From contig JAJEEG010000006.1 in NCBI GenBank assembly GCA_022821085.1, forward strand, positions 689,330-753,329: a stretch of 64,000 nt of DNA, in the 5' to 3' direction. A program made the translations under genes and the position numbers. This document shows, piece by piece, positions 10,087 through 39,734 of this stretch (position 1 is the stretch's first letter; every line of letters starts with the position of its first letter). The notes below the pieces were generated by a model. The model ran no database searches, was not told where the DNA came from, and saw only the letters and a list, made by a program, of their open reading frames with translations. This DNA comes from Candidatus Latescibacterota bacterium (GTDB lineage Bacteria; JAAXHH01).

Positions 10087-11709
10087 TTAGTACATGCCGC
10101 CGCCGTGGGGCATGGCCGGAGGCGGGTTGTCTTCGGGGAGTTCCGCCACCAGCGCTTCGGTGGTCAGCAGCAGGCCGGCGATGCTCGCGGCGTGCTGCAG
10201 CGCTACGCGGGAGACCTTGGCGGGCTCGATCACGCCCGTTTCGGACATGTCGCCGTAGGTATCGGATTCGAAGTTGTAACCGTATCCGCCTTCGCCTTCC
10301 CGGATCTTCTGCAGGATGATGGAACCTTCAAGGCCGGCGTTCTCCGCCAACTGCCTCACGGGCGCCTCGAGCGCCTTGCGCACGATGCCGGCGCCTACTG
10401 TTTCGTCCCCTTCGGTGGCCAGTCCGTTGTCCAGCGCGGAGAGCGCGCGGATGAACGTGACGCCGCCTCCCGGGACGACCCCTTCCTCGATGGCCGCCTT
10501 GGCGTTGTTCAGGGCGTCCTCGACGCGGGCTTTCTTCTCCTTCATCTCGGCTTCCGTCGCGGCGCCCACGTTGATGACGGCCACGCCGCCCGCCAGCTTG
10601 GCCAGGCGTTCCTGGAGCTTCTCCCGGTCGTAATCGGAGGTGGTTTCCTCGATCTGGGCGCGGATCTGGTTGATGCGCCCCTGGATCGCGTCGGTGCCGC
10701 CGGCGCCTTCCACGATCGTCGTGTTGTCCTTGTCGAGGTTGACGCGCTTGGCCGTGCCCAGGTCGCCCACGGTCACGTTTTCCAGCTTGAAACCGGCGTC
10801 CTCGGAGATGACCGTGCCCCCGGTCAGGATGGAGATGTCCTCGAGCATGGCCTTCCGGCGGTCGCCGAACCCGGGCGCCTTGACCGCGGCGACTTTCAGG
10901 GTGCCGCGAAGCTTGTTGACCACCAGCAGGGCAAGGGCCTCGCCCTCGATGTCCTCGGCGATGATCAGCAGCGGGGAGCCGCTCTGTGCGATCTTCTCGA
11001 CGACGGGATAGATATCCTTGACGGCGCTGATCTTCTTGTCGTGAATCAGGATCTTCGTGTCTTCGAGTACGGCTTCCATGGACTCGGAATCGGTCACGAA
11101 GTAAGGCGAAAGGTAACCGCGGTCGAACTGCATGCCCTCCACGACGTCGAGGGAGGTTTCCATGCTCTTGGCCTCTTCGACCGTGATGACGCCGTCCTTG
11201 CCCACTTTTTCCATCGCGTCCGCGATCAGGTCGCCGATGGCGGCGTCGCCATGGGCCGAAACGGTGGCGGTCTCCGAAATTTCCTTCCGTCCTTCCACGG
11301 CCTTCGACATTTCAGCAATCGAACCGACCACCGCGGACACGGCCTTGTCGATGCCCCGCTTCAGATCCATGGGATTGGCGCCGGAAGTCACGTTACGCAA
11401 GCCTTCCGCGTAGATGGCCTGGGCGAGCACGGTGGCCGTGGTCGTCCCGTCGCCGGCCACGTCGCTCGTCTTCGACGCGGCTTCCTTGATCATCTGGGCG
11501 CCCATGTTTTCGTAATTGTCCTCGAGCTCGATTTCCTTCGCCACCGTGACACCGTCCAGCGTGAAGGTGGGCGAACCGAATTTCTTGTCGAGCACGACGC
11601 ATCGTCCCTTGGGACCCATGGTGACACGGACCGCGTCAGCCAGGGCGTCCACGCCGCGTTTGAGGGCCTGCCGGGCATCGGCGTCGAAAGAAAGTTGTTT
11701 TGCTGGCAC
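10087..11709 (-). CDS. groEL: Chaperonin GroEL (60 kDa), with no adjacent groES
   Basis: 540 aa product. Full-length GroEL with a C-terminal GGM-type tail ([12 protein letters not shown]). No GroES-like ORF in the 390 nt upstream. Confidence 0.97.
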
Positions 11710-11840
11710 TTCTGCTACCCCCTATGTTGCGCCGGGTGGTACCGGGCGATTCCGAGCAAGGCGAACAGGCTTGGCTGTACGCACTTCTGAGTCGTCTAAA
11801 TACTTGTATATTCAACAAGTAGCAATACTTAAATTAGCAC

Positions 11841-11867
11841 TCTAACTTCCAGTCTGCTAATATATGA
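11841..11867. promoter_or_regulatory. CIRCE-like HrcA operator (TTAGCACTC-N9-GTCTGCTAA) upstream of groEL
   Basis: The left half matches the CIRCE consensus TTAGCACTC exactly. The right half matches GAGTGCTAA at 7 of 9 positions. It lies about 130 nt upstream of the groEL ATG in an AT-rich promoter region. Confidence 0.6.
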
Positions 11868-12099
11868 AGGGTCGCTGGATGATGCAAGTTTTTTTTGGTT
11901 TGGGTCGCCTGCGGATTTGGACATTCGCGGGGGATTTGACGATGTAAGGCGCTTGCGGGTTATTCGGAAGATAGGTGGCGCTTGCGTGCGTATCCAGCGC
12001 GCGTGCCTTGCGTATCCACTGACAGACAGGTTGATAGCGGCCGGCTTATCGACAGGAAGCGCTCCAGCCTGAGGCCGGCGTCCGATCCTCTGCCGCGAA

Positions 12100-12951
12100 T
12101 CAGGCGTTCCGCCGCAGCACGGCGATATAGATCAGCGCGGTGGCGAACATGATCAGGCTGTAGGTCGCCGCCGGCATGGTTGCGAGCCCGCCGCCGAACA
12201 GCATAACCGCGACCGCGATCGCGAGCGTCCCGTTCTGGATGCCGCATTCGATCGCAACGGCGGTCCGCTGGGTCGGTCCGGAGGCAAACGTCCGGGCGAG
12301 CATCCAGGCGAGTGTCATCATCAGCAAGTTGAGGACGAGTGTGACCAGCCCGGCCTGCGCGAAATAGGGGACGATGTTGGCGCGTTGATCGTAGATCGCG
12401 CCGGCGAGAACGAGCATCAGCAGCACCGCGGAGACCTTGCGGGCTGCAGGTTGGAACCGAACTGCGAAGCCTTCCGCAAAGCGGCGGATAACAAGACCGA
12501 TCAGCACCGGAACGGCGACGATCATGAAAACGCCGAGCGCGGCGCCGGCGACCGAAATGTCCTGCCCCGCCGAATCACCGATGAACTGCCCGTAGGCGAA
12601 GACCACGATGACCGGAATGGTGATCACGCTTGCCAGACTGATCACCGCGGTCAGCGAGATCGACAGCGCGACATCGCCGCGCGCAAACGCGGTCAGGATA
12701 TTGGAGGTCGGGCCGCCCGGCGCGGCGGCGATGATCATCAGGCCCAACGCGAGCTCCGGCGCCAGCGGCCAGGCGCTGGCGAGGACGAAGGCAACCGCCG
12801 GCAGCAGGACGATCTGGGAGAGGGCACCCACCACGAAGTCGCGCGGCCGGCGTACCACCCGGGCGAAATCATCGAAGGTGAGACCGAGCCCAAGCCCGAA
12901 CATGATGAAGGCGAGCGCCAGCGGCAGCCCGACGTCGACAAGTAATCCCAT
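12100..12951 (-). CDS. Bile acid:sodium symporter (BASS/AEC-like) family transporter
   Basis: About 283 aa. Multi-TM protein with BASS-like motifs (MFGLGLGLTFDDF, GGPTSNILT). Probable start at internal MGLLVDVGLPLAL rather than 13002. Confidence 0.65.
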   Translation of the reverse strand: MGLLVDVGLPLALAFIMFGLGLGLTFDDFARVVRRPRDFVVGALSQIVLLPAVAFVLASAWPLAPELALGLMIIAAAPGGPTSNILTAFARGDVALSISLTAVISLASVITIPVIVVFAYGQFIGDSAGQDISVAGAALGVFMIVAVPVLIGLVIRRFAEGFAVRFQPAARKVSAVLLMLVLAGAIYDQRANIVPYFAQAGLVTLVLNLLMMTLAWMLARTFASGPTQRTAVAIECGIQNGTLAIAVAVMLFGGGLATMPAATYSLIMFATALIYIAVLRRNA

Positions 12952-16568: not shown

Positions 16569-18245
16569 TCAAAACTCGCAATCCGGACCGCGCAATACGC
16601 GCTGCACGCTTTCCGCGCCGGTCCGTCCTTCCGCGCCCGTCTGGCCATGCGCGCCGGTCAGGCCATGCGCGCCGGTCAGGCCATGCGCGGCATCGACATA
16701 AAGCATTTTCCGGGCTTGTTCCCTGGTCCGAATATCATGTATGGTCTGGATCGTTTCAAGCTTATCCAGCAGGCGGCCGACCTCCGGCCCCTCGGGCAGG
16801 CCCAGGTCGTCCATGATGTCCGCGCCGTTCAACATCAGGCCCTTTGCCCGCAGGTTCCGGTGCCGGGTATAAAGCCGCAGGAGCCGGTGCGCGGCCTTCG
16901 CGGTCCTTCCGCCCGTCGCGTTACCCTCGTCCGGTGCGTGCGCCAGGGCGAGGAGCGCCGCGCCGGGGGTATCGTCTTTCGACCCGCGGAGAATCCGGCA
17001 GAGCGCTTCGTCGTCCGGTTCCCGCAAAGCGGTCCCCTCGAGCAACCAGACCGCCCCGAACACCAACTGGTGGAGCGACTGCCTTTCCCGCCTGCTCAGT
17101 CTCAACCGGTCCGCCGCGCCTTCGACCAGCTCGAGGGTTGGGTCCGTGCCACCAGCCGAGCCGCCGTCCGCGCCTTCGACCAGTTCAGGGGTTGGGTCCG
17201 TGCTGCCAGCCGCGCCGCCGTCCGCGCCTTCGACCTGGTCAGCGGTCGGGACCGTGCCGCTGGCCCGGATGCCGCACAGTAACAGGCTGGCGAATCGGAG
17301 GATCCACAGGCTGGTCCGGTCTCCCGCCATTTTTGCTTCGTATCCGGTCAGGTGGGCGTAAAGTCCCTGGTCCTCCAGGAAAACGTCCCTGGCGATGAGC
17401 CGGTCCGTCTGCTCCAGGCGACGAAACGTCGAGGTCGACGCCGATGCCGACGACGATTCCATCCACCCGGAAAAGAGCGACCCGAACACGCCGGAACGTA
17501 CCATGGCGGACACCCGGTCCGAGGTGCGGCGCCGACCCATAATCAAGGATAGTTCGTAGAGCAGGCGTTCGCCCGATACCTCCCGCAGGTCTTCGTTGAG
17601 TGCCGTGAGCCACGCCTCGGTACGTGACGTGATTCCCAGGCCGAATTGACCGGCAAGCCGAAACGCCCTCAAAACGCGCAGCGGGTCGTCGCGGAAGGAC
17701 GCCTCGGAAACGGCATTGAGCCGCCTTGCCGCGAGGTCGGCCGCGCCGCCCAGGGGATCGATGACCGACGGCCTGCCGTCCAGCACATCCGCCAGGCGCA
17801 CGGCCATGGCGTTGATGGTGAAATCCCGCTTGCGGAGATCCGCCTCCAGGGAATCGCCTTTGAAGGACGAGATATCGATCGTGAACCGACGCCGCAACAC
17901 GACGCGCCCGGTTCGGTCCGTATCGTCGAGCGGCACGAAGGGACAGCGAAGGCGGTCCGCCAGTTTCCGTCCCAGCGCCAGTCCGTCCGCCGCGAGCGTG
18001 AGGTCCAGGTCGCGTACCGTGCGGCCCAGGATGGCATCCCGTACGGAACCGCCCACGAGATAGACTTCGTGGTTCACTTCCCGGCACAGGTCGGCCAGAT
18101 CGGAGGCCAGTCGCCTATGGGCCTTCAAGAGGGGCTGAACAGGATCGACAAGGGCTGACATCGGGTATTCAAAAGGCGTGGGGTCGTGGGTCGGAGGGGA
18201 AATTGGCCATCGCACGGGGAACCGGCGAAGCATGGGCCGGGACAC
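16569..18245 (-). CDS. tRNA nucleotidyltransferase / poly(A) polymerase family protein (CCA-adding-enzyme-like) with internal tandem repeats
   Basis: Class II nucleotidyltransferase head (VYLVGGSVRDAILGRTVRDLDL, RDFTINAM). Contains an in-frame roughly 54-nt x 2.5 repeat (ELVEGADGGxAGxTDPT) and a C-terminal 21-nt x 3 repeat (AHGLTG). Confidence 0.8.
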   Translation of the reverse strand: MSRPMLRRFPVRWPISPPTHDPTPFEYPMSALVDPVQPLLKAHRRLASDLADLCREVNHEVYLVGGSVRDAILGRTVRDLDLTLAADGLALGRKLADRLRCPFVPLDDTDRTGRVVLRRRFTIDISSFKGDSLEADLRKRDFTINAMAVRLADVLDGRPSVIDPLGGAADLAARRLNAVSEASFRDDPLRVLRAFRLAGQFGLGITSRTEAWLTALNEDLREVSGERLLYELSLIMGRRRTSDRVSAMVRSGVFGSLFSGWMESSSASASTSTFRRLEQTDRLIARDVFLEDQGLYAHLTGYEAKMAGDRTSLWILRFASLLLCGIRASGTVPTADQVEGADGGAAGSTDPTPELVEGADGGSAGGTDPTLELVEGAADRLRLSRRERQSLHQLVFGAVWLLEGTALREPDDEALCRILRGSKDDTPGAALLALAHAPDEGNATGGRTAKAAHRLLRLYTRHRNLRAKGLMLNGADIMDDLGLPEGPEVGRLLDKLETIQTIHDIRTREQARKMLYVDAAHGLTGAHGLTGAHGQTGAEGRTGAESVQRVLRGPDCEF

Positions 18246-18408
18246 CCGGTAGCCATCGAGCCGGATTCCACCGAAAACTATGGGTCCGGAACATCCGAGT
18301 CAAGGGATTTGTCGGTTGACAGGCCGGCGCTTTTCGGCCCATCTTTAGCACAGGACGCTGGTTCGAAAGCGTGCCGTCGGACTGGGCTTCGGAGGGCGAT
18401 GATTCCAG

Positions 18409-19149
18409 ATGCAACTCTACCCCGCGATCGACATCAGACAGGGGCGATGCGTCCGGCTCGTCAAGGGCAGGCGCGATCGCGAAACGGTGTACGGTGATTC
18501 CCCTGCGGGAGTCGCGTTGCGATGGAAATCGCAAGGCGCAACCTACTTGCATGTCGTCGACCTGGACGGTGCGTTCACCGGCGAAGCGGGCAACCGGACC
18601 AGTGTCGTCGGCATCCTGGAACAGGCCGACATGCCGGTGCAGCTGGGCGGAGGCATCCGTACGCCCGAGGCTGTGGAGGCCTGGCTGTCGCTGGGAGTGC
18701 GCCGCGTCATCCTGGGTACGGCGGCCGTGGAGCGTCCCGACATGGTGCGGCAGGTGGTGGAGGCGTGGGGACCTGAACGCATCGTCGTCGGCATCGACGC
18801 CAGGGCGGGACGGGTCGCGGTCAATGGCTGGACGTCCGGAGCGTCCTGTTCATCGCTCGAACTGGCGGAGGCCATGAAGGAAGCCGGGGTCTGCAGGATC
18901 GTCTACACGGACATCGACCGGGATGGTACGATGAACGGACTGGATACCGGTTCGACGGCGCGCCTGGCGCGTGAAAGCGGAATGCGGGTGATCGCGTCGG
19001 GAGGCGTGGCCACGCTGGACGACCTCGAACGAGCCTCCGGGGCCGTCGCGGACGGCCTGGAAGGGGTCGTGCTCGGCAAATCCCTGTACGAAGGAACGAT
19101 CGACCTGCCGGAAGCCGTGCGCAAATACCAGTCTGCCCCGGACGCATAG
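18409..19149 (+). CDS. hisA: ProFAR isomerase (HisA/PriA family)
   Basis: 246 aa product. Begins LYPAIDIRQGRCVRLVKG...LHVVDLDGA... (TIM-barrel HisA). GGAGGG RBS. Confidence 0.85.
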   Translation: MQLYPAIDIRQGRCVRLVKGRRDRETVYGDSPAGVALRWKSQGATYLHVVDLDGAFTGEAGNRTSVVGILEQADMPVQLGGGIRTPEAVEAWLSLGVRRVILGTAAVERPDMVRQVVEAWGPERIVVGIDARAGRVAVNGWTSGASCSSLELAEAMKEAGVCRIVYTDIDRDGTMNGLDTGSTARLARESGMRVIASGGVATLDDLERASGAVADGLEGVVLGKSLYEGTIDLPEAVRKYQSAPDA

Positions 19150-19166
19150 GACCCTGGAGAGGAACC

Positions 19167-20813
19167 ATGCCGGAACACACCGTCGAAGTCCTGATGATCG
19201 AAGACAACCCCGTGCACGTGCAGCTGATTCGCCACTACATGGAATCCAGCCGGCTTTCGACCCGACTTCACGTCGCCGGGACGCTCCGGGAAGGGCTGGA
19301 CCTGATCGGGGAAGCGTCCTTCGACGTGGTGCTGCTGGACCTTGTCCTGCCTGACAGCGCCGATCTCGACACGCTCCACAGCGTGCGCGCGGCCGCTCCG
19401 GACCTGCCGGTCATCATACTCACCGGGCTCGACGACGTTTCCCTGGCCGCCACGGCCGTGGAGTCGGGCGCCCAGGACTATATCGTGAAGACCCAGGCCA
19501 ACACCACCATGCTGTCCCGTTCCATACACTATGCCATCGAACGCGTGCGCGCGCGTAGCGGCGAGTGGGATTCGGCCATGTTCAAACTGGCACAGCAGCA
19601 GTTTTTGAAGGCCGCGCAGATCATGGGACTGGACGAGAACATCCGGGAACGGCTGCTCTTTCCCCAGCGGACCCATATCGTGACGCTCCCCTTTCGCCGG
19701 GACGAATACCATCTCGTGGAGAACGTCTTCGGTTACCGGGTGCAACACCTGCTCACCATGGGTCCGACCAAGGGCGGCATCCGTTACCACGAGGACGTGA
19801 ACCTGGGGGAGGTCTCCGCCCTGGCCATGTGGATGACCTGGAAATGCGCGCTGATCAACCTGCCCTTCGGCGGCGCCAAGGGCGGCGTCCGGATCGACCC
19901 GACTGACCTGTCCCGCCGCGAGCTGCAGCGCCTTACCCGCCGCTTTACGTCGGAAATCATCGACATCATCGGACCGGACAAGGACATCCCCGCCCCCGAC
20001 ATGGGCACCGACGAGCAGGTCATGGCCTGGATCATGGATACGTACAGCCAGCAGGCGGGCTACACGGTACCGGGCGTCGTCACCGGCAAGCCGGTCGTGC
20101 TGGGCGGGTCCCTGGGACGCCGGGAAGCCACCGGCCGCGGCCTGGTCTACCTGATCGAGGAGGCCGCGAAGCACACGGGCTTGTCCCTGGACGGCGCCAC
20201 GGCGGTGGTCCAGGGCTTCGGCAACGTGGGCAGCAACACGGCGCGCTTCCTGGACGAGGACGGGGTCAAGGTGGTCGCGGTTAGCGACGTCACCACAGGA
20301 ATCTACAATGCCAACGGGCTGTCACTGGAGGACGTGTACAGGCACTGCGACGAAAACCGTTTCCTGCAGGGCTATCCCGAGGCCGACGAGGTAACCAACC
20401 AGGAACTGCTGGAACTGCCCTGCGACATCCTCGCCCCGGCCGCGCTGCAGAACCAGATCACCGGAGACAACGCGGACCGGTTGCAGTGCAGGCTTCTCGC
20501 GGAAGGGGCCAACGGACCCACCACGCTCGATGCCGACGAGATCCTCGCGGAAAAGGACGTGTTCATTCTGCCGGACGTCCTGGGCAACGCCGGTGGCGTG
20601 ACCGTTTCGTACTTCGAATGGGTGCAGGATACGCAGAACTACACGTGGACGCTCGAGGAGATCAACAGCAGGCTGCACAACATCCTCATCGACGCTTTCG
20701 GCAGGACCGTACACCGGGCTTCCGAAGACAGGATCGACATGCGTACCGCGGCATTGATCGAGGGGATCAGCCGGGTGACCCAGGCGAAACTGCTTCGGGG
20801 GATCTTCCCCTGA
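19167..20813 (+). CDS. Response-regulator receiver domain fused to glutamate dehydrogenase (REC-GDH)
   Basis: Residues about 5-125 form a complete CheY-like REC. It has the acidic pair IEDNP, a phospho-acceptor Asp in VVLLDLVLP, a Thr in VIILTGL and a Lys in DYIVKTQ. Residues about 150-548 form a Glu/Leu/Phe/Val dehydrogenase with GDH motifs PTKGGIRYH and LPFGGAKGGVRIDP and a Rossmann GFGNVG. The reading frame is continuous, with no internal stop. GGAGAGG RBS. Confidence 0.85.
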   Translation: MPEHTVEVLMIEDNPVHVQLIRHYMESSRLSTRLHVAGTLREGLDLIGEASFDVVLLDLVLPDSADLDTLHSVRAAAPDLPVIILTGLDDVSLAATAVESGAQDYIVKTQANTTMLSRSIHYAIERVRARSGEWDSAMFKLAQQQFLKAAQIMGLDENIRERLLFPQRTHIVTLPFRRDEYHLVENVFGYRVQHLLTMGPTKGGIRYHEDVNLGEVSALAMWMTWKCALINLPFGGAKGGVRIDPTDLSRRELQRLTRRFTSEIIDIIGPDKDIPAPDMGTDEQVMAWIMDTYSQQAGYTVPGVVTGKPVVLGGSLGRREATGRGLVYLIEEAAKHTGLSLDGATAVVQGFGNVGSNTARFLDEDGVKVVAVSDVTTGIYNANGLSLEDVYRHCDENRFLQGYPEADEVTNQELLELPCDILAPAALQNQITGDNADRLQCRLLAEGANGPTTLDADEILAEKDVFILPDVLGNAGGVTVSYFEWVQDTQNYTWTLEEINSRLHNILIDAFGRTVHRASEDRIDMRTAALIEGISRVTQAKLLRGIFP

Positions 20814-20847
20814 CGACCGCCGGCCTGCGTTGACCGGGAGGTAGGCC

Positions 20848-23800
20848 ATGGCTACTACGGAAACCGACGGACCTGCATCAGAAACAGACGCTGCTTCGAC
20901 GGAAATCGGTACGACTACTACAGCGTTCGATCCGGCATCGACGGAGATCGACGCGGCGTGGGTGCGGCTGCTGCAGAAAGCCGCGTACCTGTGCAGCATG
21001 ATCGTCATCGCGTGCTCGGTGCTCGTGCTTGCCGGCTGGCTGCTCGATCTCGCCGTCCTGCGGGGTTTGGTCAACCCCGGGCGGGTTCCCATGAATCCGC
21101 TCACGGCCGCCGCCTTTCTGCTGGCCGGCGGCACGTTGTGCGCGTTGCTGCCGAGGAACGCTTCGGCCTATCGCAGGTGGGCGGGTTTCGCAGGCGCGGC
21201 GCTGCTCATGACGCTGGGGGCCGTCAAGCTCTTCGACGTGGACGTTGGCGGCAAGGGCATCGACCAGTGGCTCTTCGCGGCGTCCCTCGGCGGCAGCCGC
21301 ATGGCGCCGCACACCGCCTTCACGTTCATGCTGGTGGGCCTTGCGCTCCTGCTGCTGGACCTGCGCGGGCCGAGACACTGGCTGTCCCACGTCTGCGTCA
21401 TGAACGCCGGGATCATCGCCCTGCTGTCCCTGGCCGGGGCGATCTACAGCACCATGGTACTGTACCGGGTTTCCGGCGTGATCCCCATCACGCTGAACTC
21501 CGCCCTGGGCTTCGGCGTCCTGTGCGTCGGCATATTCTGCGCGCGTCCCCGACGCGAACCGGCGGCCACCCTGGTCAGCGCTACGGCCGGCGGCCTCATG
21601 GCCCGCCGCCTGCTCCCCGCGGCCTTTCTCATACCCATCATCCTGGGCTGGCTCCAGTTCCAGGGAGAAAGGGCGGGTTTCTACGGTGTGGAGTTCGGTC
21701 ATTCGATCTTTGTCGTCTGTAACGTGATCGCCTTCAATATCCTGATCTGGTGGAACGCCCGCTCGATCGGGCAGATCGACGCGGAACGCACGCGAATCGC
21801 AAGCGAACTGCACCGGCAGAACGCCCTGCTGGAGCAGACGACCCACGACATGGTGCTCTTCCAGGGTGAACTCCAGGAAGCCAAGGAGTCCGCCGAGGAG
21901 GCCAGCCGCGCCAAGAGCGAATTCCTCGCCAACATGAGCCACGAGATCCGCACCCCGATCAACGGGATAACCGGCATGACCCAGCTCATGCTGCATACCG
22001 ACCTCACCTCCCGGCAGCGGGAGTTCATGCGGCTCATCGATCAGTCCACGGAATCGCTCCAGGGCCTGTTGAACGATATCCTGGACTTCTCGAAGATCGA
22101 GGCGGGCCGCCTGGAACTCGAATCGATCCCCTTCGAACTGCGGGAACGCATCGCCAATACCGTGCAGGCCATGTCGATCCCCGCTACGGAAAAGGGCCTG
22201 GAACTGGCGTACCGGGTCGCTCCCGACGTGCCCGACCAGCTTGTGGGCGACCCGGGACGGCTGAGCCAGATCGTGATCAACCTGGTCGGAAACGCCATCA
22301 AGTTCACGGAAGCGGGAGACGTGGTCCTTTCCATGTCGCTGGCCTCGGAATCGGAGGAAGCCGTTACGCTGGCCTGCTCGGTGGCCGACACGGGCATCGG
22401 CATACCGGAAGACAAGCAGCAGCTGATCTTCGACGTCTTCAGCCAGGCGGACAGTTCCATGTCGCGGAAGTACGGCGGTACGGGCCTGGGACTGGCCATC
22501 TGCGCGCAGTTGACCGCCATGATGAACGGCCGCATCTGGGTCAAAAGCGAAGAAAGCCGGGGAAGCACCTTCCACTTTACCGTCGACCTGCAAAAACGGC
22601 GCGACGCGGTGGAAAAGCCGGTCGTGGACGCCCGGCCGCTGGCCGGCCTGCGGGTACTCGTGGTCGACGACCATCCCACCAATCGGAAGTTTCTGGTCGA
22701 CATGCTGGCCGAATGGTCCATGCAGACCGCGGAAGCCGGTACGGGGGTGGAAGCCCTCACCGCCCTTACCGGCGATGACGGCGAAGCCATCCGGCTGGTC
22801 CTGCTGGACGAAACCATGCCGGAAATGGAAGAGCACGGGCTCATCCGGGAAATCAACCGGTGCGCCGACGGCAGGAACCTCGACGTCATCCTGCTCGTCT
22901 CCGCCGGACAGCGGGCCGACCCCGGGATAGGCGACTATGCCGGAATCGCCTGTACGGTCAGCAAGCCGGTCAAGCAATCCGACCTGCTGAACGCCATCAT
23001 GGATACCGTGGCCGGCACGTGCGCTCCCGCGCTGGATGAGGGCGCCGACGGCTTGTCCGAAGGGGTGGTGCCGCAGCGCATCCTCCTGGCCGAGGACGGC
23101 GCCGTGAACCAGCGCGTCGCGGTCCTCATGCTGGAGTCCAGGGGTCATGAAGTCACCGTTGCGAACAACGGCAGGGAAGCGGTCGAGCGGTTCAAGTCCG
23201 GCGCGTTCGACCTGATCCTGATGGATGTGCAGATGCCCGAGATGGACGGACTGGAGGCCACGCGGACCATCCGCGGCCTGGAAACGGACGGCGATCATAT
23301 CCCCATTGTCGCCATGACGGCCCACGCCATGAGCGGCGATCGGGAGCGGTGCCTGGAGGCCGGGATGGACGATTACCTGTCCAAGCCCATCCAGGCCCGG
23401 TTGCTGTACACGGCGGTGGAGGGCGCGCAGGCGGCGGTGAGAGGCGCGCAGGCGGCGGCGAGAGGCGCGCAGACGTCTTCCGGGGAGCGTGCTTCAATGG
23501 CGGACCGGGAGGAGACCGTCCCATCATCGGCCTCCGCGCCCGTCGATTGGGACAAGGCCGTTGCCCGGGTTGGCGGGGACGAAGCCGTGATCGCGGAACT
23601 GGCCGGACTCTTCCTGGCCGAGTGCCCGGGGCTCGAGACCGGCATGCGCGAGGCGGTGGATGCGGGCAACGCCGCCGATCTGAGACGGCATGCCCATACG
23701 TTGAAGGGTTCCGCGGGGATTTTCCAGGCCGAGGCCGCCGTCGATGCCGCCCAGCGCCTGGAAAAGATGGGCAGGGACGGAGACCTGGACGGTGCGGAAG

Positions 23801-23892
23801 AGGCGCTGTCGGCACTCGCCCATGAACTGGACCGGTTGAAGCCGGTCCTCGCGGCACGTGTCGCCGAAGTGAAACCGCAGGCCGGGAGCTGA
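20848..23892 (+). CDS. Hybrid sensor histidine kinase: about 8-TM N-terminal sensor, HisKA, HATPase_c, REC, REC, HPt
   Basis: 1014 aa product. Eight hydrophobic helices lie in residues about 45-310, followed by a coiled coil. H-box [15 protein letters not shown]. ATPase G-box GTGLGLAIC. Two receiver domains ([10 protein letters not shown]... and [11 protein letters not shown]...[13 protein letters not shown]). C-terminal HPt with [12 protein letters not shown]. It starts 34 nt after the REC-GDH stop. GGGAGG RBS. Confidence 0.9.
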
Positions 23893-23895
23893 AAA

Positions 23896-25032
23896 ATGAC
23901 GAGCGCGCTCCAGGAGCTCACCGCGAAACTCGTTTCGATCAACTCGACCAATCCCTCGCTGTCACCGGCCGCCGCGGGCGAGCAGGAAATCGCCGCCTTC
24001 GTCGCGGACTGGTGCCGGGACCGGTCCCTCGACGTGCGGATCGTGGATGCGGACGGACGTCCCAGCGTGGTTGCCGTCGCGCGGGGTACGGGGGGAGGCC
24101 GCTCGCTCATCCTGAACGGTCATCTCGATACGGTTGGCGTGGACGGCATGGACGACCCGTTCCTTCCGAGGATCGATGGCGGGAGAATGTACGGCCGCGG
24201 CGCCGGCGACATGAAGGCTTCAGTCGCCGCGATGATGGTTACACTGGCAAGCGCGCGGACAATGGCCTTGCGGGGGGACGTGGTCATGACGGCCGTCGCC
24301 GACGAAGAGGCCTACAGCGTCGGCACCACGGCCGTTCTGGACAGCGGCGTGACGGCCGACGCGGCCATCGTGACCGAACCCACCAACGGGGACGTCCTGG
24401 TCGCGCACAAGGGTTTCGTCTGGGCGGATGTAATCGCTCGGGGCCGCGCAGCGCATGGCTCCAGGCCGGAAGATGGACTGGACGCCATCACGAAGATGGG
24501 GGCGTTCCTCCAGGGGCTCGAACAACTTCAGGCCGAACTGGACCAACGAAAAGGAGATCCGCTGCTCGGTTCAGGATCGGTGCATGCGTCGGTCATCGCC
24601 GGCGGCCGTGAGATGTCAAGCTATCCCGCGACGTGCCGTCTCGGTGTAGAAAGGCGCACGGTCCCGGGAGAGACGGCAAGGAGCGCAATCTCGGAGCTGG
24701 AAGATATAGCCGAACGATGCCGTCGGGCCGATCCGGGTTTTCAAGCTACAGTCGATCTGACCTTCGAACGGCGGCCGTTCTCGATCGATACCGGTCATGA
24801 AATCGTCGAGCTGGTCAGGGCGGTCGCCGCACGGACATCCGGTCGCCGGCCCCGTATCTCCGGGAGTGCCGGCTGGATGGACGCCGCGCTGCTGAGTAGG
24901 CGCTCGATCCCGACGGTAATCTACGGACCTGCGGGAGGCGACTTTCACGGGGACAACGAATGGGTGGACGTGGCGTCGATCGAAGCCTGCGCCGAGGTGC
25001 TCACTGAGGTAGCCAAAGCGTACTGCGCATGA
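23896..25032 (+). CDS. M20-family metallo-deacylase (ArgE/DapE/carboxypeptidase G2-like)
   Basis: 378 aa product. M20 metal-binding motifs (NGHLDTV, GRGAGDMKAS, DEE). Starts 4 nt after the HK stop, so it is probably the same operon. Confidence 0.8.
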   Translation: MTSALQELTAKLVSINSTNPSLSPAAAGEQEIAAFVADWCRDRSLDVRIVDADGRPSVVAVARGTGGGRSLILNGHLDTVGVDGMDDPFLPRIDGGRMYGRGAGDMKASVAAMMVTLASARTMALRGDVVMTAVADEEAYSVGTTAVLDSGVTADAAIVTEPTNGDVLVAHKGFVWADVIARGRAAHGSRPEDGLDAITKMGAFLQGLEQLQAELDQRKGDPLLGSGSVHASVIAGGREMSSYPATCRLGVERRTVPGETARSAISELEDIAERCRRADPGFQATVDLTFERRPFSIDTGHEIVELVRAVAARTSGRRPRISGSAGWMDAALLSRRSIPTVIYGPAGGDFHGDNEWVDVASIEACAEVLTEVAKAYCA

Positions 25033-25059
25033 CCCTGCGCGATGCAAGCCCTTCCCGGA

Positions 25060-26754
25060 TCATGTTTTCTTTCCGTACCGCTCCAGGTACCTGTTTTCCG
25101 CTTCGATCGTCCCGATGAGCAGGATCTCGCACCCGGTGGAAAGTTTCATCGACGGAGGCGGGCTCACGATGCTCTCCTTCCCGGTGAAAACCGCCGCGAT
25201 GTAGCATCCCGTCTCCGGGTAGACTTGAGACTCGGCGATGGTCTTGCCGGCAAGTTCGCGGGGAAGCCTGACCCGAAAGAAGTTCAACCCTTCCGTGATC
25301 ATGACAATGTCGTTCCGCTTGAGCAGGTTCAGGATGATATTGGCGCCCATGGAAGCGTAGGACATGACGAAGTCGGCCCCTGCCCGGTGAAGCGCTTCCA
25401 CGTTCCTTTCCTGTTTCGCCCGGGTGATGATCTGTATATCCGGCCGCAGCTTGCGGCAGTAGATCGTGAGGTAGATGTTGATGTCGTCTTCGTGGGACGT
25501 GATGATGACGGTGGGCGCGTCCATGAGACCGGCCTTCTTCATGGTTTCGATATCCGCCGCGTCGCCCAGTACGTAGTGTTTTTCATCCCGAATCCGGTCG
25601 GCCTGCTGCTCGATGATCCGGTAGTCCAGCCCCCTTTCCACAAGCGTACTTCCCGCGGACCGTCCCACGCGTCCGCCGCCGATGATGACGATGGGAGGAT
25701 CGGATACGTTGTAGATGGCGAAAAGCTCGTTGTAGGAAGTGATCTGGCTTTCCGTCCCCAGGAGCACCAGGATCATCCGCTCGGTCAGCGGCGTATCGGG
25801 CGCGATCACGTGGAACCTTCCCCGCTCCCACACGCCGACGACCGTGACACCGGTCAGTTCGCGAAGGCGCGTCTCGCGCAGGGTCTTGCCGATGAGCGGA
25901 GTATCCACGATGCTCGCGTCGGCGACCATCAGGTCTTCGACGTTTCCGAGAACGTGGGACATGGAATCCACGCTCGACGCAAGCCGGGCGAGGAGCTGCC
26001 CCATCTGCTGTCCCAGCTGGATCACGTGGGTGCAGCCCGCCAGTTCTAGGATATCCACGGAGTCGGGTGAATTCGCCGTGGCCAGGATGGGGATTTCCCG
26101 GTTGATATTCCGGATCGTGAAGGCGATGCTGGTGTTCAGCGTGTCCTTGCCGGTAGCCACTACGAGCGCCGCCTGGTCAACATTCGCATGCCGGTAGGTC
26201 TCCGCGTTGTCCAGGTCGCCGTATACGACATTCAGGCCCCGGTCGTGGAGGAGCAGCGCTTCGTCCAGATCGGGAATGATGAAAACGTAATCGTTCCCGT
26301 ACTGCCTGAGCCTGGAGGCAAGCGAACTCGTCACCTCGTCATGATGGGTGATGACCACGTGGTCCTGGAAGTTCGGTTCCAGCGATCGAGGCGCGCGCGC
26401 GATGGAGTGGGCGCTGAGCCAGGGACGGTAGATGAACTCGACAAAGGCCACGGGGAGCACGATGATCAGCGTCGTAAGGCCCGTCAGCAACACGCAAAGT
26501 GAAAAGATCCGCCCCAGGTCGCTGGTAAAGACGATGTCGCCGTACCCGAGCGTGGTCATGGTGACCAGCGTCCAGTAGAATCCGGTGAACCACGTATGTT
26601 CCCGTCCCTCCATTTCCTGGAGCTGGTGGAACAGGAACGTATAGACCAGGATCAACAGGAAGAGGAAGATGAAGAACCGGTAGAAGAACTTCAGGTTTCC
26701 CGATCCGATCGTGGTGCGCAATACGCCCAGGTACTGTCTTAAGAAGGTCTGCAT
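25060..26754 (-). CDS. Potassium channel with tandem RCK (TrkA-N/TrkA-C) domains
   Basis: 564 aa product. Pore helix plus selectivity filter TTLGYGD, and two TM helices. Two Rossmann RCK modules (VVITHHDEV... and IVIIGGGRVGRS...). Confidence 0.85.
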   Translation of the reverse strand: MQTFLRQYLGVLRTTIGSGNLKFFYRFFIFLFLLILVYTFLFHQLQEMEGREHTWFTGFYWTLVTMTTLGYGDIVFTSDLGRIFSLCVLLTGLTTLIIVLPVAFVEFIYRPWLSAHSIARAPRSLEPNFQDHVVITHHDEVTSSLASRLRQYGNDYVFIIPDLDEALLLHDRGLNVVYGDLDNAETYRHANVDQAALVVATGKDTLNTSIAFTIRNINREIPILATANSPDSVDILELAGCTHVIQLGQQMGQLLARLASSVDSMSHVLGNVEDLMVADASIVDTPLIGKTLRETRLRELTGVTVVGVWERGRFHVIAPDTPLTERMILVLLGTESQITSYNELFAIYNVSDPPIVIIGGGRVGRSAGSTLVERGLDYRIIEQQADRIRDEKHYVLGDAADIETMKKAGLMDAPTVIITSHEDDINIYLTIYCRKLRPDIQIITRAKQERNVEALHRAGADFVMSYASMGANIILNLLKRNDIVMITEGLNFFRVRLPRELAGKTIAESQVYPETGCYIAAVFTGKESIVSPPPSMKLSTGCEILLIGTIEAENRYLERYGKKT

Positions 26755-27155: not shown

Positions 27156-28529
27156 ATGGATAATGTCATTTCCTACCTGGAAGGACAGCGAACCCAGGCC
27201 CTGGAGGGCTTGAAGGACTTCCTCCGCATTCCCAGCGTGAGCACCCATCCCCACCACCGCGAGGACCTCCGCCGTTGCGCCCGTTTCCTCGCCGACGAAC
27301 TGAAACGGATCGGCATGCAAAACGTGGCGGTGAATCCCACGTCCGGCCATCCCATCGTAACGGCGGATTGGCTCGGCGCGCCAGGCAGGCCCACCGTCCT
27401 GTTATACGGCCACTACGACGTCCAGCCCGCGGAACCCTTTGAACTCTGGGAGAGCGATCCCTTCGATCCCGTGATCCGGGGGGACAACCTCTACGCCCGG
27501 GGATCGACGGACGACAAGGGGCAGGTCTGGCTGCACGTGAAGGCACTGGAAGCCCACCTGCGGGAGAACGGCCGGCTTCCGGTGAACGTCCGCATGCTGA
27601 TCGAGGGCGAGGAGGAGGTCTCGAGCGAGAACCTGGAAGCCTACCTGGAAAGCCACAGGGAGGAACTGGGGGCGGACGTGGTGGTCATTTCCGACACGTC
27701 CATGTTCGACTACGAGCAGCCCTCGATCGGGTATGCCCTGCGGGGGATGGCCTACATGGAGGTCCGCCTCGAGGGCCCCAACAAGGACCTGCATTCGGGC
27801 GTCTATGGCGGCGCGGTGCCCAACCCTCTGAACGTACTGTCGGAGATGCTGGGCAAGATGGTGGACGGCGACGGACGGATCACCGTGCCCGGGTTCTACG
27901 ACGACGTCCTGCCCCTGGGCGTCGAAGAGCGTGCATCCCTTGCCGCGCTGCCTTTTGACGAGGAAGGCTTCGCCGGAAGACTGGGCCTGCCGGGATCCAC
28001 GGGCGAGAAAGGCTACTCGACCCTGGAACGCCTGTGGGCGCGGCCCACCCTTGATGTGAACGGGATGCTGGGGGGATTCACGGGCGAGGGGTCGAAGACC
28101 GTGATCCCGTCGAAGGCCATGGCCAAGGTGAGCATGCGCCTCGTGCCGAACCAGGACCCCGAAAGGATCGCCCACGCGTTCGAAGATTACGTCAGAAGCC
28201 TTGCGCCGCCCACGGTCAAGGTGGAAGTCATCCATCACGGCACGGGCAAGCCGGTCCTCACGGCACGGGACCATCCCGCGGTGACGGCCGCACATCAGGC
28301 CATTACGCGCGGCTTCGGCAAGGAGCCCGTCTACATCCGGGAAGGCGGCAGCATTCCGGTGGTGGCCATGTTCGAGGAGATACTCGGCCTGCCCACGGTC
28401 CTGATGGCTTTCGGCCTGCCCGACTGCGATGCCCACGCGCCCAACGAGAAGTTCCACCTGCCCAATTTCTACCGGGGTATTGACAGCGCGGCCTGGTTCT
28501 ACGAGGAGTACGGCCGTTACGCGGACTGA
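27156..28529 (+). CDS. M20-family dipeptidase (M20A/YgeY-like)
   Basis: 457 aa product. Carries HYDVQP, GSTDDKG, EGEEE and a dimerisation-domain insert. Confidence 0.8.
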   Translation: MDNVISYLEGQRTQALEGLKDFLRIPSVSTHPHHREDLRRCARFLADELKRIGMQNVAVNPTSGHPIVTADWLGAPGRPTVLLYGHYDVQPAEPFELWESDPFDPVIRGDNLYARGSTDDKGQVWLHVKALEAHLRENGRLPVNVRMLIEGEEEVSSENLEAYLESHREELGADVVVISDTSMFDYEQPSIGYALRGMAYMEVRLEGPNKDLHSGVYGGAVPNPLNVLSEMLGKMVDGDGRITVPGFYDDVLPLGVEERASLAALPFDEEGFAGRLGLPGSTGEKGYSTLERLWARPTLDVNGMLGGFTGEGSKTVIPSKAMAKVSMRLVPNQDPERIAHAFEDYVRSLAPPTVKVEVIHHGTGKPVLTARDHPAVTAAHQAITRGFGKEPVYIREGGSIPVVAMFEEILGLPTVLMAFGLPDCDAHAPNEKFHLPNFYRGIDSAAWFYEEYGRYAD

Positions 28530-29818
28530 CCGGCGGCCGCCCGTTTCTCCATGGCGTCCACCGAGGTCGCCACGGCGGCATCGCCCGTGACGTTCACCGC
28601 GGTGCGGCACATGTCGAGGATGCGGTCGACGCCGAGGATCAGCGCGATGCCCGCGGCCGGCACGCCGATGGTCTCCAGGATGATGATCAGCATGATGATG
28701 CCCGCGCCGGGTACAGCGGCCGTGCCGATGGAGGCGAGGACGGCCGTGAGGACGATCTGCAGCTGGGCGGTCATGTCGAGCCCGAGCCCGAGGGCCTGGG
28801 CGATGAACACGGCGGCCACGGCCTGGTAGAGGGCGGTGCCGTCCATGTTGATCGTGGCGCCGAGGGGCAGGACGAAGGACGAAACCTCTTTCGTGACGCC
28901 GAGATTCCGTTGGCTCACATCCATGGTGACGGGTAGGGTGGCCCCGCTGGAGCTGGAGGAGAAAGCCAGGAGCTGGGCCGGGGCGATCCCCCGGAAGAAG
29001 CGGACGATCTTCATGTTGGAGAAGATCTTCAGCATGAGCGGGTAGGTGACGATGCCGTGGATCAGCAGGCCAACGAGGACCACCAGGCAGTAAAAGCCAA
29101 GGGCTCCGAGGAGTTCGCCGACCGCGGACAGATCATCCCTGGCCACCTGGTTGATGGTCTTGGCGATCAGGGCGAAGACCCCGATGGGGGCGGCGACCAT
29201 GATCATGTGTACGATCTGGATGATGACCGACGTGAGCCCGCCGAAGAAATCCACCAGGGGCTTGCCCTTGTCGGCCGGGATCAGTACCAGGGCAATGCCG
29301 AAGAGGAGAGAGAAGAAGACGACCTGGAGCATCCGCCCGTTATTGCTCAGGGCGCCGAAGATGTTGTCGGGGGTCATGTCCACGAAGACCTGCAGCGGAC
29401 CCCGCTCCCTGGCCGTTTCGGCCCGCTCCATGTCCGATTCCGCGTCGGACTGGTAGGCCGCCTGCAGCTGTTCCTGCAGCCCCTGGGGCACGCCCGTGCC
29501 GGGTTCGAGCAGGTTGACCATGACGAGGCCGATGGTCACGGAGACGGTCGTCGTGAGGATGTAGATGGCGATCGTCCTGCCCCCGATGCGTGACAGTTTC
29601 TTCACGTCCGACAGGGAAGCGACGCCCATGATGAGCGAGCCCAGCACGAGGGGAACGGCGATGACCTTGAGCAGGTTCAGGAAGATGTCGCCGAAGGGCG
29701 TGATCCAGTCCTCGGTGAACCGGCTCCAGCCCATGGCCGCGGAGAGTAATCCGTACAACAGGCCCAGGATCATGCCAATGATGATCTTCCAGTGCAGGGG
29801 CAGGCGCCACAGGTTCAT
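28517..29818 (-). CDS. gltP: Dicarboxylate/amino-acid:cation symporter (GltP/DctA family; likely glutamate/aspartate symporter)
   Basis: 433 aa product. DAACS motifs (FGDIFLNLLKVIAVPLV, SSSSGATLP, NMDGTALYQ). Confidence 0.85.
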   Translation of the reverse strand: MNLWRLPLHWKIIIGMILGLLYGLLSAAMGWSRFTEDWITPFGDIFLNLLKVIAVPLVLGSLIMGVASLSDVKKLSRIGGRTIAIYILTTTVSVTIGLVMVNLLEPGTGVPQGLQEQLQAAYQSDAESDMERAETARERGPLQVFVDMTPDNIFGALSNNGRMLQVVFFSLLFGIALVLIPADKGKPLVDFFGGLTSVIIQIVHMIMVAAPIGVFALIAKTINQVARDDLSAVGELLGALGFYCLVVLVGLLIHGIVTYPLMLKIFSNMKIVRFFRGIAPAQLLAFSSSSSGATLPVTMDVSQRNLGVTKEVSSFVLPLGATINMDGTALYQAVAAVFIAQALGLGLDMTAQLQIVLTAVLASIGTAAVPGAGIIMLIIILETIGVPAAGIALILGVDRILDMCRTAVNVTGDAAVATSVDAMEKRAAAGQSA

Positions 29819-38060: not shown

Positions 38061-39734
38061 ATGCTGAAGACACGGCATATCACGGTCAAACTCCCGCTTG
38101 CCTTCACTTTGATCCTGGGCCTGTCCCTGCTCTTTCCGCCCGACGCGGTACTCGGCCAGTCTCAGGTGCGTTCGGAGCTCCAGGAGCGCCTGGATCCCCA
38201 GGGCAGCCCGACTCTGAAAGGCGGTACGGTCACCATCGGCAAGGTAGCCGTCGGTGATCTAACCTTCCACCCCCTGTTCAACAGCCTCGGCGTGGAACGG
38301 GAGATTGCCTCGCTGATTTATGGCGAAGGCCTGCTTCGCGTGGATGAATCGGGTACGCCGTCGGACGGGCTGGCCTATCTGCCCTTCAAGCTGTCGAACG
38401 GCCTCGACTGGGTGTTCCGGCTGAAACAGGGCATTGAATTCCACGACGGTGAGCCGTTGACGGCCGCAGACGTGATCTTTACGTACACACGGTACAAGTC
38501 CGCGCGGGTGTACGATCCCGTCTTCCACCGCTATTTCCAGAACATCGAGCAGATTACCGCCCTCGACCGGCAGACCGTCCGCATCATCATGAAGTCGCCG
38601 ATCGAAAACTTTCCCAACCGGCTTGCCACCCTGCCCATACTGCCCGGGCACCAGATGGGCCCCGGCCTCTTCGCCGATGCCGGCGCGCACCTTGAAACGA
38701 CCCGGCCCATAGGACTCGGGCCGTACCGGGTCGCGACATGGCCCGTCCACGATACGGTGGCGCTCGAAGCCAATGAAACCTGGCACCAGGGCCGCGCGAA
38801 CCTGGACCGCGTAGTCTACCGGTTCTATCCCACATCCGAATCCCTGCAGGCGGCTTTCATCATGCGGGAAGTGGATCTCATCGAGGTGGAACGCGACGGC
38901 ACGCTGAAGGACCTGAAGCGGGCGCGGTCCGATGCGAAGATCCAGGCGATCGTACCCGGTAGCCGCGCCTTCTCGGCGGTTTTCTACAATCACCGGCATC
39001 CGCTGCTTTCAGATTCGGCCATTCGGCGCGCGCTGACCTATGCCACGGACCGCCAGCGCATCCTGGATGAAGTACTCGTGCGCGGTGCCGGGGTGCTTGC
39101 CCAGGGTCCCCTGCACCCGGATTTCGAGTTTAAAGGCGGCGACATGGGATTCGATTACCGTCCGCGCGAGGCCCTTGAGCTGCTGCGCCTGCAAGGCTGG
39201 GGGGACGGCGACGGCGACGGGTTCCTCGACCGGGAGGGACGGCCCCTCCGGTTCGAGCTGCTGTTTCCCAGGGGACAGACCTCGGCCGAGAAGACGGTAC
39301 GGGTCGTCAAGCTGAACCTGAACCATATCGGCATCCAGGTCGTTCCCGTGCCCGTTACCCAGAAAGAACTGGTCCAACGGCTCGGGATCGGCAGCTACGA
39401 CGCGGCGTTGTTCGTGCAGGATTTCGAGCCCACGGCGGACGATCTCTACGCCGTCTTCCACTCGGAGAGCATCGGCCTCGGGAACATGCTCGGATACCGG
39501 AACCGCCAGGTCGACCGAAACATAAACTTCCTCTTCGGGCTGCCCGACCAGTTTCGGGCCGGACCCGTCTACCAGCAGCTCGAAATGCTCTTGATCCGGG
39601 ACCAGCCCTGCATGTTCCTCTACTTCGTGGATACCCGGTACATCGCGTACGATCCTACCTTGAATAACCTGGGCCGCCCAGGTGAAGCGCTCCGGTCGCC
39701 CGCGGCGTGGTTCCGGACCGTAAACGCCCCTTGA
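38061..39734 (+). CDS. ABC-transporter substrate-binding protein, family 5 (peptide/nickel/opine type)
   Basis: 557 aa product. Signal peptide and an SBP_bac_5 fold signature. No permease/ATPase genes are adjacent. Confidence 0.8.
   Translation: MLKTRHITVKLPLAFTLILGLSLLFPPDAVLGQSQVRSELQERLDPQGSPTLKGGTVTIGKVAVGDLTFHPLFNSLGVEREIASLIYGEGLLRVDESGTPSDGLAYLPFKLSNGLDWVFRLKQGIEFHDGEPLTAADVIFTYTRYKSARVYDPVFHRYFQNIEQITALDRQTVRIIMKSPIENFPNRLATLPILPGHQMGPGLFADAGAHLETTRPIGLGPYRVATWPVHDTVALEANETWHQGRANLDRVVYRFYPTSESLQAAFIMREVDLIEVERDGTLKDLKRARSDAKIQAIVPGSRAFSAVFYNHRHPLLSDSAIRRALTYATDRQRILDEVLVRGAGVLAQGPLHPDFEFKGGDMGFDYRPREALELLRLQGWGDGDGDGFLDREGRPLRFELLFPRGQTSAEKTVRVVKLNLNHIGIQVVPVPVTQKELVQRLGIGSYDAALFVQDFEPTADDLYAVFHSESIGLGNMLGYRNRQVDRNINFLFGLPDQFRAGPVYQQLEMLLIRDQPCMFLYFVDTRYIAYDPTLNNLGRPGEALRSPAAWFRTVNAP

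Follow-up and report, generated by a model that had tools for sequence, protein, structure and literature searches.

The 64-kb window analyzed here, a stretch of contig JAJEEG010000006.1 from a Candidatus Latescibacterota bacterium, contains a gene that fuses a CheY-like receiver (REC) domain to a glutamate dehydrogenase (GDH). This gene, REC-GDH, is followed by a gene for a hybrid histidine kinase that ends in a histidine phosphotransfer (HPt) domain. Our results suggest that the two genes probably constitute a self-contained sensor-to-enzyme phosphorelay that would control GDH posttranslationally. Coordinates and reading frames were taken from the sequence of the window, and gene functions from profile matches. 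A previous interpretation of the region from its sequence only (the sequence-only reading) had proposed direct two-component control of the GDH. The partnership with a kinase and its HPt domain is supported by conserved synteny; the control itself is something that we infer, and pseudo-enzyme relatives, described below, argue that the output may not be catalysis in every case. The features on which the proposal is based are as follows.

19167-20813, + strand: REC-GDH fusion gene, 548 aa; a single open reading frame (ORF) with the Pfam domains Response_reg, ELFV_dehydrog_N and ELFV_dehydrog
19182-19562, + strand: receiver (REC) domain, aa 6-132; from Pfam, conservation and the (beta-alpha)5 fold predicted by AlphaFold2 (AF2)
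19503-19667, + strand: junction, REC alpha5 to GDH alpha1/alpha2; from conservation, family-specific positions and AF2
19575-20810, + strand: GDH catalytic unit, aa 137-548; from the match to 1b26, Foldseek and catalytic residues
20848-23892, + strand: hybrid (unorthodox) sensor histidine kinase, 1014 aa; from Pfam and motif positions

The claim that the receiver is fused in frame to a complete GDH was borne out, as one uninterrupted 548-aa protein contains all three Pfam domains: Response_reg at aa 8-116 (PF00072, 65.9 bits versus a cutoff of 30.2), ELFV_dehydrog_N at aa 166-294 (175.8 bits) and ELFV_dehydrog at aa 313-545 (263.5 bits), the latter two also above their thresholds. The receiver phosphorylation residues and the KGGIRYH and GGAKGG motifs that the sequence-only reading had listed were all located. 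The phosphorylation site consists of the acidic pair E12/D13, the phospho-acceptor D58 in LLDLVLPD (codon GAC at 19338-19340), T86 in ILTG and K108 in YIVK, which align with D12/D13, D57, T87 and K109 of CheY. In an alignment of 22 diverse REC-GDH members, down to 69% identity, E12, D13, D58 and K108 were invariant and position 86 was T or S; the phospho-acceptor Asp is thus conserved when the family is properly aligned.

The GDH portion carries KGGIRYH at 202, GGAKGG at 235 and a GFGNVG Rossmann motif. Residues K202, K226, the catalytic K238, D278 and S481 are invariant across the 22 members, and the catalytic and substrate residues align one-to-one with those of Thermotoga maritima GDH. In enzymes of this type glutamate-binding Lys residues and a Ser separate Glu from Leu/Phe/Val dehydrogenases, and catalysis depends on the Lys of GGxKGG and on an Asp. 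Over aa 136-548 the protein is 52% identical to the T. maritima GDH hexamer (1b26; phmmer E=1.8e-134), and Foldseek superimposed the GDH part on solved GDH subunits with TM scores of 0.93-0.98. Conservation across phyla was ~75-90% identity for the GDH part and only ~50-60% for the receiver. From sequence and predicted fold, we infer a catalytically competent hexameric GDH. It scored below the NCBIfam equivalog cutoffs for GdhB_Halo (498.3 versus 620), GdhA_Arch (482.8 versus 750) and PRK09414 (278.8 versus 536). The "AVSD" motif of the Rossmann fold was considered as a guide to cofactor and reaction direction and was rejected for this purpose, because NAD-, NADP- and dual-specific relatives share it.

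The junction between receiver and enzyme is among the most conserved segments of the protein. Its length is fixed, with 0 indels among the 22 members, and it contains many invariant positions, including an E133-W134 linker; column identity in GDH helix alpha1 is 90%, level with the catalytic domain. We defined family-specific positions as those at least 95% conserved in 20 core fused members and matched in less than 15% of 107 unfused GDH representatives. There were 38 such positions, and their density over aa 131-170 was 0.30 per residue versus 0.05-0.14 elsewhere (3-6 fold). Charged-to-hydrophobic changes were common (D/E147L, R/K164L, R/E165F, T/E188F and R198M). We read the resulting hydrophobic patch on GDH domain I as a putative newly buried surface, which might be a docking site for the receiver or an altered subunit interface.

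Structure prediction with AF2 gave a confident monomer model from a 131-sequence alignment that included unfused GDHs (mean pLDDT 94.3, pTM 0.81). For the receiver, aa 6-132, it predicts five helices interleaved with five strands, most of this region having a pLDDT >90. At the junction, the modeled helix alpha5 (aa 113-132) leads into GDH alpha1 (aa 137-153) across a four-residue break at pLDDT 70-82; helices alpha1 and alpha2 of the GDH span aa 137-164. An AF2 run on the shallower 22-sequence family alignment reached a pLDDT of 66, with GDH domain I below 50, and was dropped as a source for domain orientation.

The kinase begins 34 nt downstream of REC-GDH and has two receivers and an HPt domain, so that both the gap and the Pfam domains agree with what the sequence-only reading had described. 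Its domains are, in order, an N-terminal sensor of eight transmembrane (TM) helices, HisKA (H365), HATPase, REC1 (D654), REC2 (D793) and HPt (H950). Phosphorylation-site residues, judged by motif positions, are complete in both receivers.

20968-21765, + strand: N-terminal membrane sensor of the kinase, aa 41-306, ~8 TM helices; from hydropathy
21910-22593, + strand: HisKA and HATPase_c transmitter core, aa 355-582; Pfam, 74.5 and 103.5 bits
22651-23418, + strand: kinase REC1 (aa 602-722) and REC2 (aa 744-857); Pfam, two stretches, 148 bits
23596-23841, + strand: HPt domain, aa 917-998, with H950 in HTLKGS; Pfam Hpt, 60 bits

All NCBIfam equivalog matches of the kinase were below cutoff: BarA (512.6 versus 890), TorS (462.4 versus 676.5) and ArcB (352.3 versus 838). 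The N-terminus had been described as about eight TM helices of no nameable sensor family, and this held. Hydropathy gave the helices, and no Pfam family matched kinase aa 1-359 at E<=10 except for one match of 8.9 bits, put down to chance; the models compared included MASE, MHYT, 7TMR-DISM, 5TMR-LYT and PilS-6TM. Since homologs of the module are found ahead of PAS, GGDEF and HisKA domains in other (metagenomic) proteins, the region looks like a modular membrane sensor domain for which Pfam has no model, one that appears to be undescribed. Repeated M-x-P-x-T-A-like motifs, read by eye, occur at its helix starts. Elsewhere in the kinase, an in-frame tandem repeat of 21 nt x 3 (23411-23472) encodes GAQAAxR three times in the linker between REC2 and HPt. 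The offset of HPt from the gene start varied from +2627 to +2842 nt among close relatives, which suggests that this linker is polymorphic in length.

The association between REC-GDH and its kinase was assessed by tblastn searches with pieces of the window proteins against 80 loci, and counts were made on the 52 loci that had 4.5 kb or more of sequence on each side. A kinase core with HPt directly adjoined REC-GDH in 50 of the 52, in several phyla, and an HPt domain did so in 51. The kinase was downstream on the same strand in 38 of the 50, upstream on the same strand in seven (Planctomycetota, Pseudomaricurvus) and convergent in five (Nitrococcus, Enhygromyxa and other Myxococcota). Cross-phylum identity of the linked kinases was 50-67% in the core, 55-74% in REC2 and 30-45% in REC1. 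Because core and REC2 identity is high across phyla and adjacency persists despite rearrangement, these sequence comparisons indicate that the HK-REC-REC-HPt transmitter is orthologous and co-inherited with REC-GDH. Adjacency of this orthologous gene at 50/52 loci makes the hybrid kinase very likely the cognate partner of REC-GDH. No other response regulator was consistently found near REC-GDH across the loci examined, which leaves REC-GDH as the obvious terminal acceptor.

The input domain varied between lineages. A sensor homologous to the 8-TM module was present at 28/52 loci, and the kinases elsewhere carried dCache_1-HAMP-PAS (Gimesia), TorS-like plus HAMP-PAS (Pontibacterium), PAS (Sinorhizobium) or DUF4154 (Pseudomaricurvus) sensors. 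Such sensor swapping is the pattern expected of an output module that has been rewired to different inputs. Neighborhoods often contained genes of amino-acid and peptide catabolism (peptidases, amidohydrolases, RidA, racemases and transporters), a gene content that gives only a hint of a catabolic direction for the GDH.

The sequence-only reading had placed the kinase and an M20 deacylase in one operon with REC-GDH and had considered that hisA might share the transcript. As a conserved part of the module the kinase stood, and the other two did not: hisA adjoined REC-GDH in 20/52 loci and M20 in 8/52, in both cases within a close Gemmatimonadota/Latescibacterota-like clade only. We therefore rejected M20 and hisA as functional parts of the module; they are clade-specific and probably co-transcribed passengers.

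The REC-GDH architecture is widespread and routinely annotated by automatic pipelines. The best 120 matches in a collection of 5.8 billion proteins all had REC, ELFV_N and ELFV domains in 537-555 aa, down to 69% identity. With a family-specific probe made of the receiver and junction (alignment A2), the architecture was found in at least 187 species-representative genomes; 80 loci were retrieved, and they show it in complete chromosomes and cultured isolates as well. The closest relatives are in Gemmatimonadota/Latescibacterota-type metagenome-assembled genomes (MAGs), two of them at 96-97% identity (IRC1_bin_16 and SB0665_bin_8). Farther members occur in Zixibacteria, Planctomycetota (Gimesia, Pirellulales, Roseiconus), Myxococcota (Enhygromyxa salina, Bradymonadales), Alphaproteobacteria (Sinorhizobium fredii, Ensifer, Ruegeria) and Gammaproteobacteria (Nitrococcus mobilis Nb-231, Pontibacterium, Pseudomaricurvus, Amphritea). 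In Sinorhizobium and Ensifer, REC-GDH and a PAS hybrid kinase are on megaplasmids, e.g. pNGR234b (NC_012586.1, 1463435-1464019) and pSfreNXT3a (L084), and conjugative ability is predicted for eight of nine such replicons. The patchy distribution over phyla at ~70% identity agrees with this, and conjugative megaplasmids are a plausible vehicle.

In an exhaustive HMMER scan of 1.84 billion cluster representatives, the main family formed one 50% cluster (P0148), and the nearest unfused GDHs were only 50-54% identical. A neighbor-joining tree of the GDH columns grouped the 20 core REC-GDHs in a clean clade that contained no unfused sequence. It gave no single clade for all 24 REC-bearing sequences, in which the pseudo-enzymes were on long branches; a single origin of the fusion is therefore proposed here from nearest-neighbor evidence only. 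Other GDHs also have N-terminal extensions (P0159, P0161, P0169, P0179, P0197 and P0238), among them one fusion of a CdsA-type cytidylyltransferase fragment to GDH (607 aa) and several extensions of 110-200 aa without a Pfam match. These may be further fusions to regulatory domains.

We propose the following scheme, which builds on the architecture, conserved chemistry, synteny and predicted fold described above and is conjectural in each phosphotransfer step, in the allostery, in the direction of the effect and in the signal. The lineage-specific sensor of the kinase, here the 8-TM membrane module, would perceive a signal, upon which the kinase would autophosphorylate on H365. The phosphoryl group would pass to one of the kinase's own receivers, most likely to D793 of the well-conserved REC2, and would move on to H950 of the HPt domain and then to D58 of REC-GDH. 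Phosphorylation of D58 may alter the alpha4-beta5-alpha5 face of the receiver, and the rigid, fixed-length junction (alpha5, E133-W134, alpha1), together with the hydrophobic patch on the hexamer-building domain I, could transmit this change, such that the activity or assembly state of the hexameric GDH shifts. The node between glutamate and 2-oxoglutarate plus NH4+ would thereby be switched within seconds, with no need for new gene expression. The analogy with CheB, PleD and WspR would lead one to expect activation of the GDH by phosphorylation, although this direction is a guess. A more ambitious reading, held tentatively and with a little less than even confidence, is that the cassette is ancient and horizontally mobile, that it represents the first phosphorelay to end in allosteric switching of a hexameric core-metabolic dehydrogenase, that it takes its input from varied sensors, and that the GDH fold has become a dead signaling domain in some lineages.

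Several observations weigh against the phosphorelay. At two of the 52 loci no full kinase adjoins REC-GDH: in an 8-Mb Latescibacterota genome (L031) only a 269-aa REC-HPt protein (11631-12440) follows REC-GDH, and in a Planctomycetaceae MAG (L076) no kinase was found within ~8 kb on either side. The putative REC/GDH interface is deduced from sequence signatures, and the AF2 model is that of a monomer. The sequence-only reading had known of no characterized REC-GDH, and we likewise found none in the literature or the PDB. No experimental (biochemical or genetic) study turned up in the full-text literature, a search outside which most subscription journals lay, so this absence is not proof. Finally, relatives of the family indicate that the output of the module may be something other than GDH catalysis, at least in divergent pseudo-enzyme lineages. 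Four more clusters that combine REC with a GDH-like domain (P0149, P0165, P0200 and P0265; loci L085-L090) were found at 36-51% identity. All four keep D13, D58, K108 and the junction motif. K202 is replaced by L, M, F or V and K226 by Q or R, three of the four have A, F or M in place of the catalytic K238, and D278 is G in at least two. A hybrid kinase with HPt, of CHASE or PAS type (the sensors include CHASE and PAS_7), is beside at least three of the four, the contig of P0200 being too short to tell.

In these lineages the pairing of receiver and kinase has outlived GDH catalysis, which keeps alive the alternative that the GDH body serves as a metabolite sensor or interaction platform (a "trigger enzyme"), with catalysis secondary. 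Glutamate, 2-oxoglutarate or NAD(P)H, once bound to the GDH body, might then tune the gain or loss of phosphate by the receiver, and REC-GDH could serve the kinase as a phosphate sink gated by metabolites or as a feedback element, or bind another target in its phosphorylated form. The retention of phosphorylation site and junction in all four clusters despite the lost GDH residues speaks for this, as does the fact that their GDH domains are nearest to core REC-GDHs rather than to unfused GDHs. Moonlighting GDHs do exist, and the structural matches included Bacillus subtilis GudB complexes with glutamate synthase (7mfm) and DnaK (9a5j). For the family represented in the window, however, we regard it as unlikely. 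Its catalytic and substrate residues are all invariant and the GDH is more conserved than the receiver, a sign of strong selection on catalysis; the neighborhoods showed no second conserved partner gene; and the pseudo-enzyme clusters are few and come mostly from short metagenomic contigs. Less probable again, to the point of being doubtful, is that the receiver is a structural or vestigial appendage, serving oligomerization or stability in an unphosphorylated state while the kinase signals to some other regulator. Receivers that work independently of phosphorylation (atypical receivers) are known elsewhere, and phosphotransfer to REC-GDH is deduced from sequence; yet a receiver that is never phosphorylated would not be expected to keep all five residues of the phosphorylation chemistry invariant, or T/S, across phyla, the adjacency of kinase and HPt survives rearrangement at nearly every locus, and no alternative regulator is conserved nearby. 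That REC and GDH are separate genes which an error of assembly or a frameshift has merged can be practically dismissed. The ORF is uninterrupted, the junction is one of the protein's best-conserved stretches, and a 99%-identical REC-GDH is found in the same gene order on an independent 173-kb scaffold, so the fusion is genuine; the 537-555 aa architecture recurs in hundreds of independent assemblies (closed chromosomes, isolates and plasmids), which refutes the artifact.

In the window, the module is embedded in a four-gene arrangement, completed by these features.

18409-19149, + strand: hisA; NCBIfam TIGR00007, 266.1 bits versus a cutoff of 228.95, and NF010112, 255.7 versus 243
23896-25032, + strand: M20 ArgE/DapE-family deacylase, 378 aa; Pfam Peptidase_M20 and M20_dimer
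25075-25090, + strand: terminator-like hairpin, the sole such site in 17800-25400, directly past M20

The hisA gene is an equivalog-level match to ProFAR isomerase (TIGR00007, NCBIfam). The M20 protein reached the subfamily cutoff of TIGR01910 (222.1 bits versus 217.6) and was under all equivalog cutoffs in NCBIfam, e.g. ArgE TIGR01892 (171 versus 297.7). Intergenic gaps are 17 nt between hisA and REC-GDH, 34 nt between REC-GDH and the kinase, and 3 nt between the kinase and M20; the sequence-only reading had given the first and last of these as 18 and 4 nt, each one too many. Both REC-GDH and the kinase have a purine-rich ribosome-binding site ahead of the start. The scan of 17800-25400 gave no terminator-like site inside the operon or between hisA and REC-GDH and no sigma-70 promoter site. 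The hairpin is probably the operon end; one terminator-like site was seen in this interval versus 4.3 expected by chance, which makes the terminator scan weak evidence. From spacing, ribosome-binding sites and the terminator scan, a four-gene operon is plausible, and hisA and REC-GDH probably share a transcript.

Just beyond the operon are genes for an RCK/TrkA-type K+ channel (25060-26754, - strand), a second M20 peptidase (27156-28529, +) and a sodium:dicarboxylate/glutamate-type symporter (SDF; 28517-29818, -). These neighbors, compared with the 99%-identical scaffold only, hint at handling of glutamate or K+-glutamate. The K+ channel, the glutamate-type symporter and the mostly marine hosts prompt the speculation of an osmotic K+/glutamate role. 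Upstream, a gene of the poly(A)-polymerase/CCA-adding type (ORF 16569-18245, -) contains in-frame tandem repeats of 18 nt x 4.3 and 54 nt x 2.7, at 16612-16689 and 17114-17258; its ORF is 558 aa in the window versus 477 aa as called on the 99%-related scaffold (L091). The window also contains a second histidine kinase followed by a receiver-type gene (~40790-41936, +, within 39707-41936) and a HisA/HisF-like paralog (61810-62421, -), and no second GDH was found in it.

GDH is a meeting point for the metabolism of carbon and that of nitrogen, and bacterial two-component control of it is normally thought to be transcriptional only. If the proposal is true, glutamate catabolism or assimilation could be switched within seconds by external signals, and the outputs of response regulators would extend to a core metabolic oxidoreductase. 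The compact and portable sensor-to-enzyme design is a possible part for synthetic biology, and in the catalytically dead offshoots one can study, as in a natural experiment, the conversion of an enzyme fold into a signaling domain. The proposal is directly testable, since culturable or genetically tractable organisms carry the module, namely Sinorhizobium fredii NGR234 (pNGR234b), Gimesia maris, Nitrococcus mobilis and Enhygromyxa salina.

Among documented systems, REC-GDH is an uncharacterized response regulator with an enzymatic output for which there was previously only a catalog listing. The architecture, whose distribution the sequence-only reading had left to be established, proved to be common but not well characterized, the one mention found being in the 2009 P2CS catalog, where GDH (EC 1.4.1.3) appears only as a "Probable" enzyme output of two-component proteins (PMC2716373). 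The Galperin 2005 census does not cover it. The 2026 paper on ammonia sensing by GrtK/GrtR, considered as a REC-GDH case, describes an ordinary transcriptional system.

The closest functional precedent is the PknG-GarA/OdhI pathway of Actinobacteria, which controls GDH, KDH and GOGAT and through which amino-acid availability switches GDH without transcription (PMC5448819). There, too, a sensor-driven phospho-signal acts posttranslationally on glutamate catabolism, but it is delivered by a Ser/Thr kinase and a separate FHA adaptor to a large L-GDH, whereas REC-GDH is a small GDH whose presumed phospho-acceptor, an Asp, sits in the receiver covalently attached to it. The L-GDH180 enzymes also have regulatory-type domains N-terminal to the GDH core, which have been proposed to be allosteric sensors; they belong to another GDH subfamily with another quaternary structure, and their domains are presumed to be metabolite-sensing, in contrast to the presumably phosphoryl-receiving REC here.

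With the small hexameric (S50-type) GDHs, such as those of T. maritima (1b26), Thermus thermophilus (GdhA/GdhB, 3aoe/3aog) and B. subtilis (RocG/GudB, 3k92/3k8z), REC-GDH shares every catalytic and substrate residue as well as the NAD(P) Rossmann motif. It differs from every solved GDH in its 135-aa N-terminal receiver; neither sequence nor fold searches returned a PDB chain that joins a receiver to GDH, the matches being confined to the GDH portion. It also differs from unfused GDHs in the hydrophobic substitutions, specific to the family, that lie on alpha1/alpha2 and the first strands, and it forms its own clade. The kinase resembles BarA, TorS and ArcB, its best NCBIfam matches, in combining HisKA, HATPase, REC and HPt in one polypeptide, a combination that implies a His-Asp-His-Asp relay to a separate receiver. 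It is not an orthologue of these proteins, and it differs from them in its two tandem receivers, its 8-TM sensor and its presumed target, an enzyme and not a regulator that binds DNA.

Response regulators with enzymatic outputs include the methylesterase CheB, the diguanylate cyclases PleD and WspR, and the HD-GYP protein RpfG. REC-GDH has the same layout, with an N-terminal CheY-like receiver that bears a canonical phosphorylation site on a catalytic domain, and from this CheB-type arrangement phosphorylation-dependent control of enzyme activity would be expected. CheB, PleD, WspR and RpfG are, however, signaling enzymes, whereas the output domain of REC-GDH is a presumably hexameric oxidoreductase of core metabolism.

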